This document shows, one piece after another, positions 7,521 through 10,520 of a stretch of DNA of 16,265 nt. Position 1 is the stretch's first letter; every line of letters starts with the position of its first letter. Source of the stretch: a virus (taxonomy: Duplodnaviria; Heunggongvirae; Uroviricota; Caudoviricetes); IMG/VR virus record IMGVR_UViG_2654587568_000017. The stretch is one strand, 5' to 3'. The position numbers and the translations under genes are program-made. The notes under the pieces are model-generated. The model was not told the origin of the DNA. It saw only the letters and a program-made list of their open reading frames with translations, and searched no databases.

Positions 7521-7543
7521 AAAAAAAACGGGCAAAGCCCGTT
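7521..7543 (-). terminator. Intrinsic terminator downstream of the repressor gene
   Basis: Minus strand reads AACGGGC-UUU-GCCCGUU followed by eight U; lies 12 nt after the repressor stop (7555-7557). Confidence 0.6.
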
Positions 7544-7554
7544 AAAATCAAAGA

Positions 7555-8244
7555 CTAACCAAATCTGTTTATGTTGAATGGTACTGATGAGATCACTTTA
7601 GACTGGATATAAAGCAGAGCTAACCCCTCTTTTTCGATGCTCCATGGTTGATAATTGGGGTTATCAGATAACACCATGATTTTGCTTCCAATTTTTTGAA
7701 GCCTTTTCACGTAGCATTCTCCATCAAAACAAAATGCATAAATACCATCGCCATCAAAATAAGTTACTGTCTTATCAAGAAAAAGAAGGTCGCCAGGTGA
7801 GATTGTGGGAGCCATACTGTCTCCTCTGGCGTTACCTATTTCTATATTTTTGAATGCCCGATTTCCAACAAGACGTCGGGCATATTCAGGATCAAGTTCT
7901 ATTGAGCGCACTACATCTATCAAGTCACCACGGACATGAGTTCCATCACCGCAACTAAACTCAACATCAAGGACATTAAATACGACGCTATCTGTTCTTG
8001 TCTGGTGTTTCTCTTGCGAGGAAAAGGTTGGTGAGGAGTCTTCACCTAAGAACCAGGATTGTGGATAACCGCTAATCTCTGATAAATGCGCGAGCTTATC
8101 ACTCCGTGGAAATGTTTTTCCTGTTGTCCAGTACTGCACTGATTGCGCACTCACACCTAACTTGCGGGCCAGTTGAGCCTGAGTCCATCCTTTTGCTTTC
8201 AGCATCGCGGCTATTCGATTTTCCGTGTTTTTGACGTTCTTCAT
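7555..8244 (-). CDS. cI: CI/LexA-type prophage repressor (HTH plus S24 peptidase domain)
   Basis: ORF-track start 8250 is TTG; ATG at 8244 has AGGA upstream. N-terminal HTH (GWTQAQLARKLGVSAQSVQYW), C-terminal Ser/Lys dyad (GDSMAP ... YVKRL), possible Cys-Gly autocleavage site (SCGDG, UmuD-like). Confidence 0.85.
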   Translation of the reverse strand: MKNVKNTENRIAAMLKAKGWTQAQLARKLGVSAQSVQYWTTGKTFPRSDKLAHLSEISGYPQSWFLGEDSSPTFSSQEKHQTRTDSVVFNVLDVEFSCGDGTHVRGDLIDVVRSIELDPEYARRLVGNRAFKNIEIGNARGDSMAPTISPGDLLFLDKTVTYFDGDGIYAFCFDGECYVKRLQKIGSKIMVLSDNPNYQPWSIEKEGLALLYIQSKVISSVPFNINRFG

Positions 8245-8377
8245 GACCAAATCCTGTGGGTTTCTTTACAAGGATAAATCTTTACTTGATTTTAGTGTAT
8301 TCGATCCTTTTGTAACTTGCATGTTAATTTAAACTTGATGTATTCTTGATTTATAAAGTTAATATTGGTGCTTTGTT
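8245..8377. promoter_or_regulatory. Divergent promoter/operator region between the repressor and Cro-like genes
   Basis: 133-bp AT-rich gap between divergent genes with three CTTGAT copies (8286, 8335, 8346), two of them 11 bp apart, and a TAATAT hexamer at 8361-8366. Exact operators and promoters not resolved. Confidence 0.55.
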
Positions 8378-8668
8378 ATGGAAGGAAATGATTACGACAA
8401 ACTTCGTGCATTAATTGCGCAAAATGCCATAGCGCGAAATCTTGGTGTGACGCCGCAAGCGGTGAATCAGTGGTTTTCAAAAAGCACAATTCCTGCTCGT
8501 TTCGTTTTACGAGTATGTGAAGTAGTTGCATGGAAGGTTACGCCTCATGGCTTAAGGCCAGATCTTTATCCTCACCCTGAAGATGGAATTCCTAACTTGT
8601 TACGCAAAAGCCTAAATCCAAGTTCACCACACAGAGCGGATGGAATACACGCAGGAGATAAACAATGA
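8378..8668 (+). CDS. Cro-like small HTH regulator (96 aa)
   Basis: First gene rightward from the operator region, divergent from cI; HTH-like segment NAIARNLGVTPQAVNQW; stop overlaps the next start (ATGA). Confidence 0.6.
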   Translation: MEGNDYDKLRALIAQNAIARNLGVTPQAVNQWFSKSTIPARFVLRVCEVVAWKVTPHGLRPDLYPHPEDGIPNLLRKSLNPSSPHRADGIHAGDKQ

Positions 8669-9372
8669 ACACCGCAATTTTTAACGGCAAAGCATCCATG
8701 ACCAGCGTTGAGATCGCAGAGCTGGTGGGAAGCCGACCAGATAGTGTTAAGAGAACTATTGAAACACTGGCTAAAAAGGGAATCATCCAATTTCCACAGA
8801 CTGTGGAAATTGAGAATAAACAATCACTTGGGCCTCGCCGATTTTCTAGCGCGTATGTATTCGAAGGTGAACGAGGTAAGCGCGACAGCATCATTGTCGT
8901 CGCACAGCTCTGTCCTGAATTCACAGCTCGCCTGGTAGATCGCTGGCGCGAACTGGAAGAACAGATCCGTAAGCCAATGAGCGAAATCGAAATGGTTGCC
9001 GCGATGGCTCTTGAAGCCGTTCGCCAACAGAAACGGATCACTCAGGTGGAAGAAAAAGTCAGCCACGTTGCTGAAACAGTCGAGCAAATTAAAAAGGGCA
9101 CTATTCGTGAGGGCTATGCCGGATATCGCCAACTGAAAGCAAAAACCGGTTTGTCAGATGATAAATGCCGCAATCTGGTGAACGCCTATCAAATTCCTAC
9201 AGACACACATGAGTTCATGACGCCGGACGGATTGTTGTCACGTCGCGCAATTGTTGCTGTGGAACCGTTTATGGCTGCTTTTTATCGGGTTATGGAGGAA
9301 GCAGAACCGCGAGGGACTCGCTGGTATCACCCGAAAATGGGGTTATTTCAGGTTATTGGTTGGCAGCGATGA
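8665..9372 (+). CDS. Phage regulatory protein, divergent Rha-like N-terminal domain (235 aa)
   Basis: ATG at 8665 with AGGAGA SD. N-terminus MTSVEIAELVGSRPDSVKRTIETL ... GPRRF ... IIVVAQLCPEFTARLVDRW loosely parallels the Rha pattern; assignment from memory. Confidence 0.55.
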   Translation: MNTAIFNGKASMTSVEIAELVGSRPDSVKRTIETLAKKGIIQFPQTVEIENKQSLGPRRFSSAYVFEGERGKRDSIIVVAQLCPEFTARLVDRWRELEEQIRKPMSEIEMVAAMALEAVRQQKRITQVEEKVSHVAETVEQIKKGTIREGYAGYRQLKAKTGLSDDKCRNLVNAYQIPTDTHEFMTPDGLLSRRAIVAVEPFMAAFYRVMEEAEPRGTRWYHPKMGLFQVIGWQR

Positions 9373-9395
9373 AAAAAAGCCGGGAGTAACCCGGC
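9372..9395 (-). terminator. Intrinsic terminator-like hairpin oriented for minus-strand transcription
   Basis: Plus strand AAAAAAA-GCCGGG-AGTAA-CCCGGC; on the minus strand this is a 6-bp GC stem followed by seven U. The plus side has no U-run. Confidence 0.5.
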
Positions 9396-9591
9396 TCACT
9401 CAACATCAATAACGGGGAGCTGTTTCGCATAAAACGGCTCCGAAACATCCAAGAACAGTTCTAAAGATATCAGCAGCTATATGATCATTTCAAGACCAAA
9501 TATTGATTCTGCAATTTCGGGACGTTACACTGTCTCCGCACCTTATAAAGCGGGTGCCGGGATTGGCGTCCTGAAATTCGCACATGCGCAT

Positions 9592-9614
9592 AACCGCGCT
9601 TCAGCGGTTTTTTT
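9592..9614 (+). terminator. Intrinsic terminator-like hairpin for rightward transcription
   Basis: AACCGC-GCTTCA-GCGGTT followed by a T7 run, inside the 9373-9777 non-coding gap. Confidence 0.45.
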
Positions 9615-9777
9615 GCGCACGTTTCCTCACATCCAAATTATGGTGGGGCGTGCAGGGGCATCGAAAGATGCGCCGGGGTCATGTGCGACCGGTTACGCCA
9701 ACCCTGTACGTCTCACCACCTCTGTGATTGGCGTCCCATGTGGTGAGTTTTCAAAATTCGCACATGAGGATGTCACT

Positions 9778-10329
9778 ATGGCAACCACCCCTACCCAAAC
9801 TCACTCTAAAATTGATGTTATCCATGGGAAGGCTGTTACCTCTTCTTTGGCCGTTGCCGAATATTTCTGCAAGCAGCACAAAAACGTTATTCAAAAAATC
9901 CAGACGCTTGAGTGCTCTGTTGAATTCACTGAGCTGAATTTTCAGCCCAGTGATTACACCGATTGCACAGGCCGCAAACTACCTTGCTATCAAATCACCC
10001 GCGATGGCTTCGCGTTCCTTGCTATGGGCTTTACTGGCAAACGTGCAGCCCGGTTCAAAGAGGCATACATCAACGCCTTTAACCAGATGGAGAAGAATTT
10101 ATCTGGTGCTGACGCGGTTGATATGTCAGCTGTCGCACGAAACGCCAGAGGCGTATACCTGCATTTGCGTGAAATCCATCAAATCTGGACAAGCCAGCTT
10201 TATCCAATGCTTAAGGCCGTTGAATCTCCGCTGGCTAGCAAACTGTACGACCGTGTTGGTGATGCTGTTTTTGGCGCTGCACTTGTTGATTCCAGGCTGA
10301 ATGGTTCTGACAAGGAGGTTCGCCCATGA
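9778..10329 (+). CDS. rha: Rha-family phage regulatory protein (183 aa)
   Basis: ORF-track 9481..10329; ATG at 9778 with GAGGATG SD is the likely start. KAVTSSLAVAEYFCKQHKNVIQKIQTL and GFAFLAMGFTGKRAARFKEAYINAFNQME match the Rha signature as I recall it. The upstream 99 in-frame codons are low-complexity. Confidence 0.75.
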   Translation: MATTPTQTHSKIDVIHGKAVTSSLAVAEYFCKQHKNVIQKIQTLECSVEFTELNFQPSDYTDCTGRKLPCYQITRDGFAFLAMGFTGKRAARFKEAYINAFNQMEKNLSGADAVDMSAVARNARGVYLHLREIHQIWTSQLYPMLKAVESPLASKLYDRVGDAVFGAALVDSRLNGSDKEVRP

Positions 10330-10520
10330 TTAGTTACGAAATCATCATCTCCACTACGGAATACAGAAACGATGTATCAGTTCGCACGGATGTATCTGTC
10401 TGGCACCGTCGCTATAAATCCAGAAAAACAGCGGAACTGAAAGCGGCAGAGATGTGTGAAACCATCTCAATGAAAGGTAGCCCGGTTAAATACGTAACTA
10501 CGGCGGAGGTGCGTCCATGA
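10326..10520 (+). CDS. Hypothetical small protein (64 aa)
   Basis: ATG at 10326 with AAGGAGG SD; ATGA overlap with the Rha stop. Confidence 0.45.
   Translation: MISYEIIISTTEYRNDVSVRTDVSVWHRRYKSRKTAELKAAEMCETISMKGSPVKYVTTAEVRP

Follow-up and report, generated by a model that had tools for sequence, protein, structure and literature searches.

The closest described relatives of the locus analyzed here are the immI region of phages P1 and P7, the immunity region of phage P4 and the isrK-orf45-anrP locus of Gifsy-1, in which control is known to be exerted through RNA–RNA pairing and translation. The immI region has the layout P51b – a1 b1 – c4 – a2 b2 – icd – ant1/ant2, and we found it at 48.1–48.7 kb of P1 (the range 60–94.8 kb contains no immI); the P4 region is arranged as PLE – seqA – CI RNA (seqB) – seqC – kil, nested in eta. 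In P4 the read-out is Rho-dependent termination at timm, and translation of eta, in which kil is nested, prevents this termination and thereby gives immunity-insensitive expression (PMC10111431). At the Gifsy-1 locus some transcripts read past the IsrK terminator and the short RNA turns on translation in trans, with the short and read-through isoforms, the trans activation and the binding of Hfq having been described for the Gifsy-1 RNA only (PMC4825925). The repressive pairing differs between the models, being that of C4 on a2/b2 at the ribosome-binding site in P1, but that of a1/b1 on a'/b' in cis in Gifsy-1. One module is spread over three literatures, as c4 with a1/b1 and a2/b2 in P1, as seqA/CI/seqC/eta/kil in P4 and as IsrK/orf45/STnc1160 in Salmonella.

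The stretch of DNA studied here, called the window below, comprises 16,265 nucleotides (IMG/VR virus record IMGVR_UViG_2654587568_000017). The prophage that carries the locus is lambdoid, possessing a CI/Cro switch, with the CI-like repressor at 7555–8250, and replication genes of the DnaB/DnaC type; in its early right operon the locus lies between the genes on the cro side and those for replication. Candidates for strains carrying this prophage are E. coli ECOR13/PhiR49_2, at 99% identity, and O55:H7 RM12579. As originally noted, the rightward genes are translationally coupled throughout, and a check of the open reading frames showed this coupling to be broken only at a gap of about 400 bp ahead of a Rha-family gene. 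The original prediction had described this gap as a structured regulatory region, which was borne out, but had treated it as anonymous, leaving unrecognized two known RNA genes, one IsrK/seqA-like and the other C4/CI-like. These correspond to the two Rfam families that scored above threshold in the gap, isrK at 9538–9614 (E = 1.6e-11) and C4 antisense RNA at 9636–9723 (E = 1.9e-13). With these two E-values and a z-score of −5.1 for the C4 fold, the features of the gap are beyond chance.

The segment 9495–9780 is very probably an ‘immunity’ cassette acting through RNA, of the kind found in P1 immI, P4 immunity and Gifsy-1 isrK, and controlling a Rha-family gene that encodes a putative antirepressor. 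The gap is hence a phage RNA switch of familiar type, with a c4/CI antisense RNA and its IsrK-like partner predicted to mask the Rha ribosome-binding site, and conceptually it holds nothing new. Its annotation provides a testable list of parts, including promoter, IsrK-like RNA, C4-like RNA, four target sites, ribosome-binding site and nested open reading frames (Table 1). Since the module controls an antirepressor-type gene in lambdoid and Stx-converting prophages, it may affect induction and superinfection immunity. Upstream of the cassette, 9372–9493 is a distinct mosaic module.

Table 1. Features of the Rha-proximal gap and its flanks, with positions in the window
Feature	Position	Strand	Sequence, basis and remarks
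Intrinsic-terminator-like hairpin	9370–9397	−	Stem 9377–9397 GAGCCGGGTTACTCCCGGCTT, then T-run on the minus strand (U-run of the RNA); immediately follows the upstream gene's stop codon; terminator scan
Second hairpin of upstream module	9416–9441		GGAGCTGTTTCGCATAAAACGGCTCC; fold; on the plus strand 10 pairs, of which one is U·G and becomes a C·A mismatch on the minus strand
Promoter-like site	9464–9493	−	TTGAAA, 18 nt, TG-n-TATCTT; back-to-back with IsrK-like promoter; promoter scan
Long ORF, 282 aa	9481–10329	+	Frame of Rha; ATG 22 nt upstream of the internal promoter −35; runs through the IsrK and C4 sequences
Predicted IsrK-like RNA promoter	9503–9531	+	−35 TTGATT 9503–9508, 17-nt spacer, −10 TACACT 9526–9531; read off the sequence
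IsrK-like / P4 seqA-like RNA	9538–9614	+	5' hairpin, second hairpin presenting a1, b1, intrinsic terminator
a1 target site	9563–9569	+	TTGGCGT; inside IsrK-like RNA; 7/7 complementary to a'; covaries with a' in 47 modules
b1 target site	9578–9586	+	TCGCACATG; inside IsrK-like RNA; 9/9 complementary to b' loop
Intrinsic terminator of IsrK-like RNA	9592–9614	+	AACCGCGCTTCAGCGGTTTTTTT; terminator scan and 3' end of isrK model
C4/CI-type antisense RNA	9636–9723	+	Rfam RF01695
b' recognition loop of C4	9679–9688	+	TCATGTGCGA; in 12-nt loop of second hairpin (Rfam structure)
a' recognition segment of C4	9695–9701	+	ACGCCAA; single-stranded, between second hairpin and basal stem
a2 target site	9728–9734	+	TTGGCGT; Rha leader; 7-nt perfect complementarity to a'
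Alternative-helix segment	9740–9747	+	GTGGTGAG; pairs with 3' strand of C4 basal stem, 9712–9719, with a2 in the loop
b2 target site and Shine–Dalgarno	9758–9769	+	b2 9758–9767 TCGCACATGA, 10/10 complementary to b'; overlaps Rha Shine–Dalgarno GAGG 9766–9769
Rha-family gene, 183 aa	9778–10329	+	Phage_pRha 2.3e-32, TIGR02681 2e-33; regulated cargo, nested short ORF

The IsrK-like and C4-like RNAs

The isrK model (RF01394) matched along its entire length, positions 1–77 of 77, at 62.3 bits against a gathering score of 50. Ahead of it we predict a promoter with counterparts in PLE of P4, P1c4/P51b of P1 and PisrK of Gifsy-1, from which its activity would follow by analogy. This site was not called by the promoter scanner because only 8 of the 12 consensus positions match, falling under the cut-off; it is invariant in all relatives even though their upstream flanks differ, its −10 element ends 6 nt ahead of position 1 of the isrK model, and the distance of 32 nt from the −10 to a1 equals that in the annotated P1 record. 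The plus-strand terminator that had been pointed out from the sequence was found again in the terminator scan and is the terminator of the IsrK-like RNA. It had been likened to a regulated, tR1-like stop point, of which the leaky or regulated nature is supported by the read-through at the homologous Gifsy-1 locus, while the likeness to tR1 did not hold, with the terminator having no nut twin in the window and being intrinsic and part of the small RNA model, unlike the Rho-dependent, N/nut-governed tR1 of lambda. By the same homology, transcripts passing 9592–9614 would provide both a C4 precursor and the Rha mRNA.

The match to the C4 family was likewise complete (model positions 1–87 of 87, 75.1 bits against a gathering score of 45), and the predicted fold has a free energy of −46.5 kcal/mol. 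The mature C4 RNA is predicted to span about 9642–9720, its 5' end being generated by RNase P within the AUG at 9640, as judged by homology with the boundaries of c4 in the annotated P1 record. The antisense regulator of this locus is the co-transcribed plus-strand C4 RNA, which would act by way of two short complementary stretches, and not a minus-strand RNA of the lambda oop type.

Comparison with the described loci showed the window to be collinear with those annotated in P1 and P4, and its layout to follow that of isrK-orf45-anrP in Gifsy-1 as well. The P1 record annotates promoter, a1, b1, c4, a2, b2 and icd in the order seen here and at almost the same spacings, with b2 at the ribosome-binding site of the first downstream gene in both, and the P1 C4 scores 68.8 bits on the family, compared to 75.1 in the window, with an identical 5' part, AATTATGGTGGGGCGTG. 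P1 differs in that its a1/b1 region matches RF03163 (c4-a1b1) instead of isrK, in its cargo of icd and ant in place of Rha, and in being a plasmid prophage with a C1 repressor and Op51 operator. P4 has the same two Rfam families in the same order, its seqA matching the isrK model at 60.8 bits, and the context of the kil ribosome-binding site and start, GGAGGCTGCCATCATGGCTAC, is nearly identical to that of Rha in the window family; the start context GGAGG(N8)ATGGCTAC is common to the two genes. P4 is nonetheless a satellite with a 65-aa Kil as cargo, whereas the window element is a lambdoid prophage carrying a 183-aa Rha-domain protein. Gifsy-1 shares with the window the IsrK family match, an identical a class (TTGGCGT/ACGCCAA) and an AUG in the 5' stem of C4 that opens a reading frame, and a C4-like RNA lies downstream in it, evidently the processed STnc1160, though not named C4 in PMC4825925. 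The Gifsy-1 locus is found downstream of the Q-like antQ, whereas that of the window is in the early right operon, and its orf45 ends at an ATGA overlap with a separate, coupled anrP, whereas the frame in the window is fused to Rha. A comparison of the Rha protein with Gifsy-1 AnrP revealed no sequence similarity.

Target sites and their covariation

A duplicated element at 9561–9586 and 9726–9766 had been noticed in the gap, the second copy being about 15 bases longer and overlapping the Rha ribosome-binding site. The repeat was confirmed, with shared blocks GATTGGCGTCC and AAATTCGCACATG, and once the IsrK-like and C4-like RNA genes were recognized it could be explained as the a1/b1 and a2/b2 pairs of C4 target sites, with b2 on the Shine–Dalgarno sequence. 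With respect to C4 and b2, a2 occupies a position collinear with that of its annotated P1 counterpart, and the distance of 11 nt from b2 to the ATG is the same as that from b2 to icd in P1. Within the extra bases of the second copy lies the segment of the alternative helix, in which all 8 pairs were formed in 47/47 modules, with 2 pairs changed on both sides. Its function is inferred; a corresponding helix, between the C4 3' strand and a segment after a2, was seen by eye in P4.

Conservation of structure across related prophages was examined in 47 distinct modules, using 500 shuffles and slid alignments as controls, and it revealed three-way covariation of a', b' and both target copies. For the pairing of a1 with a' and b1 with b', 96.8% of the cells were paired compared to 65.1% in shuffled data, with a covariation score of 0.812 as against 0.225 and none of the 500 shuffles reaching as high; the slid controls gave 32–49% paired. 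The corresponding values for a'–a2 and b'–b2 were 92.0% against 64.1%, and 0.717 against 0.213. Of the individual helices, b1–b' was paired in 97.6% of cells with 7/9 pairs changed on both sides, and b2–b' in 97.2% with 7/10. The structure of the two RNAs as such was also kept (91.7% paired, score 0.236 compared to 0.124 in shuffles), the C4 basal stem being paired to 99.9% with 4 pairs changed on both sides and the first C4 hairpin to 99.1% with 4/5 pairs covarying; the second hairpin was invariant. In Gifsy-1, the compensatory mutants G28A/C162U and G31A/C159U validate the a1–a' helix (PMC4825925), and in our comparison they map onto that helix in the same 7-mer class as that of the window.

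We propose the following mechanism on the model of the homologous systems. The internal promoter at about 9503–9531 would start a transcript at about 9538, and most transcripts would end at 9592–9614, yielding a 77-nt IsrK/seqA-like RNA bearing a1 and b1. Those reading through would hold the C4/CI-like RNA, which RNase P presumably excises, as it does in P1 and P4, whereupon b' in its hairpin loop and the single-stranded a' would pair with a2/b2 in the Rha leader and leave Rha untranslated, this translational block being proposed because b2 overlaps the Shine–Dalgarno sequence. Pairing of a1/b1 in cis with the same C4 segments would lock the read-through RNA in an inactive fold, and the short RNA could in trans compete for C4, thereby switching translation on. 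Finally, the long ORF from the ATG at 9481, running in frame into Rha as eta of P4 does over kil, would allow ribosomes on upstream early-operon transcripts to melt the RNA structures and thus make Rha expression insensitive to C4.

The 47 modules contained 6 classes of a and 9 classes of b in 15 combinations, with a', b' and both target copies changing jointly. The cognate a'–a2 match was 7/7 in 47/47 modules, whereas full-length b matches between non-cognate partners amounted to at most 0.5%. Among the six a classes of the relatives of the window is that of P4, TTCTCAC/GTGAGAA. A broader reading, which we put forward as tentative, would be that a and b in C4 serve as a combinatorial ‘lock code’ written in RNA, of at least 6 a and at least 9 b classes in 15 combinations, reassorted by recombination and diversifying among E. 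coli lambdoid prophages; with some phages stacking two or three cassettes with different codes, the result would be an inter-prophage network of RNA-based antirepressor immunity, including, in the variant carried by the window, a putative minus-strand RNA at 9460–9370 that diverges from the cassette promoter. If true, a resident prophage would silence only those antirepressor genes that bear its own code. Besides the b class of the window itself, the relatives include one having b' CTATGTTGA with b2 TCAACATAG.

The upstream module at 9372–9493

In lambda, the oop RNA is antisense to the 3' end of cII. A terminator hairpin with its U-run on the minus strand, recognized already in the original prediction together with an imperfect hairpin next to it, had led to the suggestion of an oop-like antisense RNA. 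Both hairpins are present. Like lambda, the window may encode in its early right region a short leftward RNA that ends at an intrinsic terminator, and it likewise has a terminator in the rightward operon. The putative RNA, from about 9460 to 9370, would nevertheless touch no coding sequence other than, at most, the upstream stop codon at 9370–9372, which the T-run reaches, and is for that reason not oop-like.

What the module could still contain is a small RNA gene of its own on the minus strand, about 85–90 nt long, extending from the promoter-like site at 9493–9464 to the terminator at 9397–9370, divergent from the IsrK-like promoter and coexisting with the C4 cassette without replacing it. 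We consider this possible but rather doubtful. It would combine a canonical intrinsic terminator with a promoter-like site having an extended −10, which could drive such an RNA, and the fold on the minus strand has a z-score of −3.4. The module occurs in 211 of 5426 complete E. coli genomes, and its four variants, although differing by about 25%, keep both hairpins with compensatory changes. At the terminator an invariant run of seven A accompanies a stem that is retained throughout, with T-A and C-G alternating as its loop-closing pair; the second hairpin is kept with varied stems (CTGC/GCAG, CTTC/GAAG and GGAGCTGTTT/AAACGGCTCC); and the promoter-like site retains its hexamers, TTGAAA and TG-n-TAT(C/T)TT, including the TG, at the 18-nt spacing. 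Against this, the scan found as many promoter-like sites as chance alone would give, the conserved ‘promoter’ bases are also those flanking the conserved ATG at 9481, and the second hairpin is better formed on the plus strand, which its U·G pair weakly favours. The Rfam search of 9300–9560 at a permissive threshold matched no family, giving only sub-threshold, terminator-driven hits such as sroD (24.5 bits against 50), and a search within the window for targets of the conserved single-stranded stretch AACATCCAAGAAC gave no match beyond chance. An 8-nt match, ACATCCAA at 9627–9634 just 5' of C4, was considered as a target and dropped, as it does not track the presence of the module. A minus-strand ORF of 31 aa at 9353–9448 was judged spurious; it runs through the terminator.

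Less probable again, and in our view improbable, is that the hairpins between 9377 and 9441 act on the plus-strand early transcript, either as a 3' stabilizer or processing site behind the upstream gene or as a boxA/boxB site of the nut type, in which CGCTCAAC would be followed after 9 nt by a hairpin whose loop is A-rich. The plus-strand fold has a z-score of −4.7, the U·G pair of the second hairpin forms on that strand only, and CGCTCAAC is found about 9 nt ahead of this hairpin in 3/4 variants, an arrangement that we take to resemble the boxA–spacer–boxB layout of lambda nutR. In the window, however, CACTCAAC stands at that position, so that the motif is disrupted, and a search of the whole window found no second copy of the 9395–9420 sequence or of either hairpin that could be a nutL-like twin; a cursory look identified no N-like gene in the window. 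The first hairpin, moreover, lacks a plus-strand U-run and has an invariant A-run, for which a minus-strand terminator is the better fit.

The Rha gene and the long open reading frame

The gap had been placed between two Rha paralogues, of which the downstream one was verified, and its counterparts are kil in P4, icd-ant in P1 and anrP in Gifsy-1. The upstream gene (8665–9372) scored below the Pfam threshold for Phage_pRha, with 25.6 bits against 29.9, and carries in relatives the PGAP name ‘Rha family transcriptional regulator’. The start codon of Rha is the ATG at 9778–9780, correcting the earlier 9779, and that the protein is an antirepressor is assumed from the naming of its family.

The description of the gap as non-coding had to be qualified, with the frame of Rha being open back to the ATG at 9481, and this ATG conserved, in 43 of 44 distinct relatives, but with codon-position bias absent. 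This frame contains no stops, compared to about 3 and about 5 in the other two frames, and indels come in multiples of 3. Diversity by codon position is flat over 9481–9777 (0.246/0.261/0.253) and becomes 0.111/0.089/0.245 in the Rha part, the signature of purifying selection beginning at 9778, which fits ribosome transit being of importance but not the protein sequence. Like eta of P4, the long ORF has its start a short way ahead of the internal promoter and shares the frame of the short regulated ORF; unlike eta, it is not coupled to the upstream gene, the ATG at 9481 having no Shine–Dalgarno sequence and being separated from that gene by 109 nt, and the eta-like bypass suggested by P4 may for this reason be weak or vestigial in the window. 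Many relatives have, at the same ATG, a GGAGG Shine–Dalgarno and an ATGA overlap with the upstream gene. P1 lacks a through-ORF, since stops follow the AUG of its C4 stem at a distance of 14 codons. More distant copies of C4 were sought in a scan of genome contigs with ATTATGGTGGGN7GGGG (15 specified bases), which gave 121 matches, about 7 of them C4-like and the rest mostly chance matches in unrelated phyla, and the through-ORF was absent from these distant C4 copies.

That Rha really begins at 9481 and the region is coding, as considered at the outset, would imply a 282-aa ‘Ash-Rha’ protein with only incidental RNA-family matches, and this is highly improbable: the open frame with its conserved ATG, the signals for translation at that ATG in many relatives and a match to Pfam Phage_ASH (4.4e-14; PGAP label ‘ash family protein’) speak for it, but the window itself has no Shine–Dalgarno there, codon-level constraint starts only at 9778, the variation clusters in segments that covary as RNA pairs, and P1 and other distant C4 loci hit stops 3–15 codons on, at the same place. 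In P4, furthermore, Phage_ASH matches residues 22–146 of Eta (3.8e-23), and this part of the ‘Ash’ ORF covers the RNA immunity region, from seqA via CI to the start of kil, which is experimentally established (PMC10111431). With the gap read as an RNA cassette, these matches suggest that what databases list as Phage_ASH or ‘ash family protein’ is for the most part a translated RNA regulatory cassette, which matters for the annotation of lambdoid and Stx-converting prophages.

An isrK–C4 cassette upstream of the Rha gene

The window was found to come from an E. coli prophage of the lambdoid type, 99% identical over this region to phage PhiR49_2. Beyond the gap, the strong Rha-family gene is followed rightward by small coupled ORFs and then by DnaC-like and DnaB-like replication genes, and ATGA-type overlaps were seen at all other rightward gene junctions, in line with the translational coupling claimed everywhere but here. 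A terminator scan recovered both terminators of the original prediction, one for each strand, while folding agreed with its description of a further hairpin, and the duplicated element (GATTGGCGTCC...AAATTCGCACATG) was present in both copies. The start codon of Rha, however, had to be corrected to the ATG at 9778, and since the Rha frame can be read upstream without a stop as far as the ATG at 9481, the gap is not ORF-free. Directly 3' of the CI-like repressor gene lies another intrinsic terminator, with an architecture like that of the minus-strand terminator of the gap.

Searching the entire window against Rfam at curated thresholds gave exactly two matches, isrK and C4 antisense RNA, both on the plus strand and both within the gap; the plus-strand terminator is where the isrK model ends on its 3' side. 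C4 also accounts for the duplicated element, which represents two copies of its target sites. The C4 recognition segment b' is perfectly complementary to b2, which extends over the first two Shine–Dalgarno bases, and complementary also to b1, while the segment a' is complementary to both a2 and a1. These C4-complementary sites are those known from P1 immI as a2/b2 and a1/b1. The original observation was confirmed and its interpretation was partly right, in that this is a regulatory RNA region with a meaningful repeat and a probably leaky terminator; its known identity as isrK and C4 in Rfam had been missed.

Features of the gap and its surroundings (window coordinates)
Feature	Position	Strand	Remarks
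Terminator 3' of CI-like repressor gene	7522–7541	minus	CGGGCTTTGCCCG, then minus-strand T-run
CI-like repressor gene	7555–8250	minus	S24 peptidase domain
Cro/YdaS-like gene	8378–8668	rightward
Weak Rha-like gene	8665–9372	rightward
Upstream module	9372–9493
Terminator stem	9377–9397	minus	U-run on minus strand
Second hairpin	9416–9441
Long ORF	9481–10329	+	Rha frame
isrK (RF01394)	9538–9614	+	62.3 bits (gathering score 50)
Duplicated element	9561–9586; 9726–9766
a1	9563–9569
b1	9578–9586
Terminator	9592–9609	+	then T-run
C4 antisense RNA (RF01695)	9636–9723	+	75.1 bits (gathering score 45)
b'	9679–9688	+	loop of second C4 hairpin, TCATGTGCGA
a'	9695–9701	+	single-stranded C4 segment, ACGCCAA
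C4 basal stem, 3' strand	9712–9719
a2	9728–9734
GTGGTGAG	9740–9747		conserved GTGGTG block
b2	9758–9767
Shine–Dalgarno GAGG	9766–9769
Rha-family gene	9778–10329	+
Rha 3' junction	10312–10332		GGAGGT(N6)ATGA, Shine–Dalgarno and overlap for next gene

In the most likely mechanism, drawn from the homologues, an internal promoter would give mostly the short IsrK-like RNA, and read-through would add C4 and the Rha leader. C4 would then pair with a2/b2 and block the Rha ribosome-binding site, with a1/b1 competing for the same C4 segments, either in cis or in trans as part of the short RNA, so that the block would be tuned or relieved. On early-operon transcripts, translation of the long ORF would let ribosomes override this RNA control. 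An IsrK/C4-type cassette is a kind of element already well described, and both the c4 antisense RNA and the c4-a1b1 motifs have been catalogued in proteobacteria and phages (Weinberg et al. 2010). Of modest interest here are the eta-like in-frame fusion to a Rha cargo, the combinatorial a/b classes, the tandem cassettes in relatives and the minus-strand module.

Covariation and comparison with P1, P4 and Gifsy-1

Conservation of structure across relatives, an analysis proposed in the original prediction, was assessed using 80 viral contigs that each encode a relative of the Rha protein, from which, together with a few phage records, 47 distinct cassette sequences were aligned. The C4 and IsrK secondary structures were supported, with 91.7% of cells paired and a covariation of 0.236 as compared to 0.124 in shuffled alignments, and covariation was much stronger for the intermolecular-type pairings. 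For a1–a' and b1–b', 96.8% of cells were paired (65.1% shuffled) with a score of 0.812 (0.225 shuffled) that none of 500 shuffles reached, and moving one partner by 1–3 columns left pairing at only 32–49%. The corresponding figures for b'–b2 and a'–a2 were 92.0% (64.1% shuffled) and 0.717 (0.213 shuffled), these including a local a2 misalignment in one class, regardless of which the result stands. Counted directly, the 47 modules held six a' and nine b' classes in 15 combinations; the cognate a'–a2 pairing was 7/7 in all 47, and b' gave a full-length match to the target of another class in at most 0.5% of comparisons. Such three-way compensatory variation is the signature expected of specificity-determining RNA–RNA contacts, and P1/P7 heteroimmunity is known to rest on it.

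A conserved alternative 8-bp helix, in which the C4 basal stem (its 3' strand) pairs with GTGGTGAG in the block between a2 and b2, was formed in 47/47 sequences, with two pairs covarying. The latter strand sits within what had been described as a 15-bp insertion in the second repeat copy, and a P4 counterpart of the helix is visible (GCTATCGCC / GGCGATAGC). The helix probably belongs to the alternative folds known from Gifsy-1.

The P1 record is annotated in the order promoter P1c4, a1, b1, c4, a2, b2 and icd, identical to that in the window, and spacings are nearly so: 32 nt in both from the end of the –10 element to a1, 29 nt in P1 and 30 nt in the window from a2 to b2, and 11 nt in both from b2 to the start codon. 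P1 and the window also agree in all of the first 17 bases around the 5' end of C4. In the P4 immunity region both Rfam families were found in the same order, with CI matching C4 (74.9 bits) and seqA matching isrK (60.8 bits), and the start region of the window's Rha family is very nearly the same as the kil start, GGAGGCTGCCATCATGGCTAC.

The published Gifsy-1 IsrK locus has an a class in common with the window. Numbered from IsrK +1, G28 and G31 are positions 3 and 6 of a1, and C162 and C159 are positions 5 and 2 of a', so that the compensatory mutants reported for this locus by Hershko-Shalev et al. (PMC4825925) constitute a direct experimental test of the a1–a' helix. The same study described STnc1160, a stable processed RNA downstream of IsrK, comparing it only with P4 and never mentioning P1 c4; aligned by eye to C4 (Gifsy-1 34040–34400, minus strand), STnc1160 is evidently the C4 homologue. 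Gifsy-1 orf45, in the same segment, is the ORF opened by the AUG in the C4 5' stem, and by P1 homology RNase P cleavage would be predicted inside this AUG.

The upstream module

The upstream module, of about 110 nt, is a mosaic element separate from the cassette. It was missing from many relatives, in which the upstream gene abuts the long ORF. Among the 5426 complete E. coli genomes searched, 211 carried it, 203 of them with at least 99% identity. Three further, diverged variants (loci L087:1998–2112, L210 and L211:401–524), making four in all, retain the seven-A run as well as the terminator stem, in which the loop-closing pair switches from T-A to C-G. The second hairpin is kept with differing stems (CTGC/GCAG, CTTC/GAAG and GGAGCTGTTT/AAACGGCTCC), both hairpins showing compensatory changes among the four variants. 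With a promoter-like site on the minus strand (TTGAAA-18-TGnTAT(C/T)TT) retained as well, the module fits a putative minus-strand RNA of about 85–90 nt, although the count of such promoter-like sites equals chance expectation, a U.G pair in the second hairpin favours the plus strand, no Rfam family matched and a target search within the window found none. The analogy to oop drawn originally was abandoned, since the putative RNA would overlap, at most, the upstream gene's stop codon. For a nut-like reading of the module, a twin site was sought in the window and none was found.

The open frame through the cassette

A Rha ORF that really begins at 9481, with the region being coding, had been named as a refutation; we found the frame to be kept open, but saw no amino-acid constraint. 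In 43 of 44 distinct relatives the Rha frame stayed open over 318 nt or more of upstream sequence, with ATGs kept at positions equivalent to 9481 and 9640, and it held no stop codon, as compared to about three and five in the other two plus-strand frames. Length differences among relatives were all multiples of three or compensated, and stop triplets in the variable a/b segments, as read by eye, were always out of frame. Codon-position nucleotide diversity was flat over 9481–9777 (0.246/0.261/0.253) and showed the usual third-position excess from 9778 on (0.111/0.089/0.245). Taken together, the open frame in relatives and the flat diversity show that the frame is maintained while its amino-acid sequence is not conserved. 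At distant C4 loci such as those of P1, Kluyvera and Izhakiella, stops occur after 3–15 codons at the equivalent place, which is further evidence against constraint on the protein sequence. The sole exception among the 44 relatives, L037:2251–2506, has lost a single base immediately behind the Rha ATG (ATG-CTAC), so that the frame is broken; this is a pseudogene or else an error in the sequence.

The same situation has been described for P4 eta. As Forti et al. (1999) are summarized in PMC10111431, this long ORF runs from upstream of the constitutive promoter PLE across seqA and CI with kil nested within; only transcription from an upstream promoter leads to its translation, which prevents termination. 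In many relatives of the window the ATG of the long ORF overlaps the upstream gene in an ATGA and is preceded by a GGAGG Shine–Dalgarno sequence, further evidence that the frame is maintained; in the window it has no Shine–Dalgarno sequence and lies 109 nt from that gene, and here an eta-like bypass may be weak. Residues 22–146 of P4 Eta, which run from seqA across CI as far as the kil start (P4 8329–8704, minus strand), match Pfam Phage_ASH, as does the window's long ORF (PF10554; 9526–9810). On these matches, Phage_ASH and the PGAP 'ash family protein' correspond to the translated isrK/seqA–C4/CI–a2b2 cassette, in the window as in P4 Eta.

Among relatives, IsrK–C4–antirepressor cassettes also occur in tandem, two or three per phage with spacings of about 650–860 nt (L045:1393–3356, L017, L025, L047, L059, L034 and L066). 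These are mostly of different a/b class, although a' and b' are identical in the second and third cassettes of L045; the C4 loop of the third (CTATGTTGA) is mismatched to the b2 of that cassette (class CTTTGGTGA), suggesting that it is recombinant. In L020:2256–2511 a deletion joins the upstream Rha-like gene (equivalent to window ~9173–9210) directly to the IsrK terminator, with the internal promoter and a1/b1 gone and C4 and a2/b2 retained. Finally, where relatives carry cassettes in tandem, the junction sequence seen here at the Rha gene's 3' end also stands ahead of the long 'ash' ORF, and therefore looks like an inter-cassette recombination joint.
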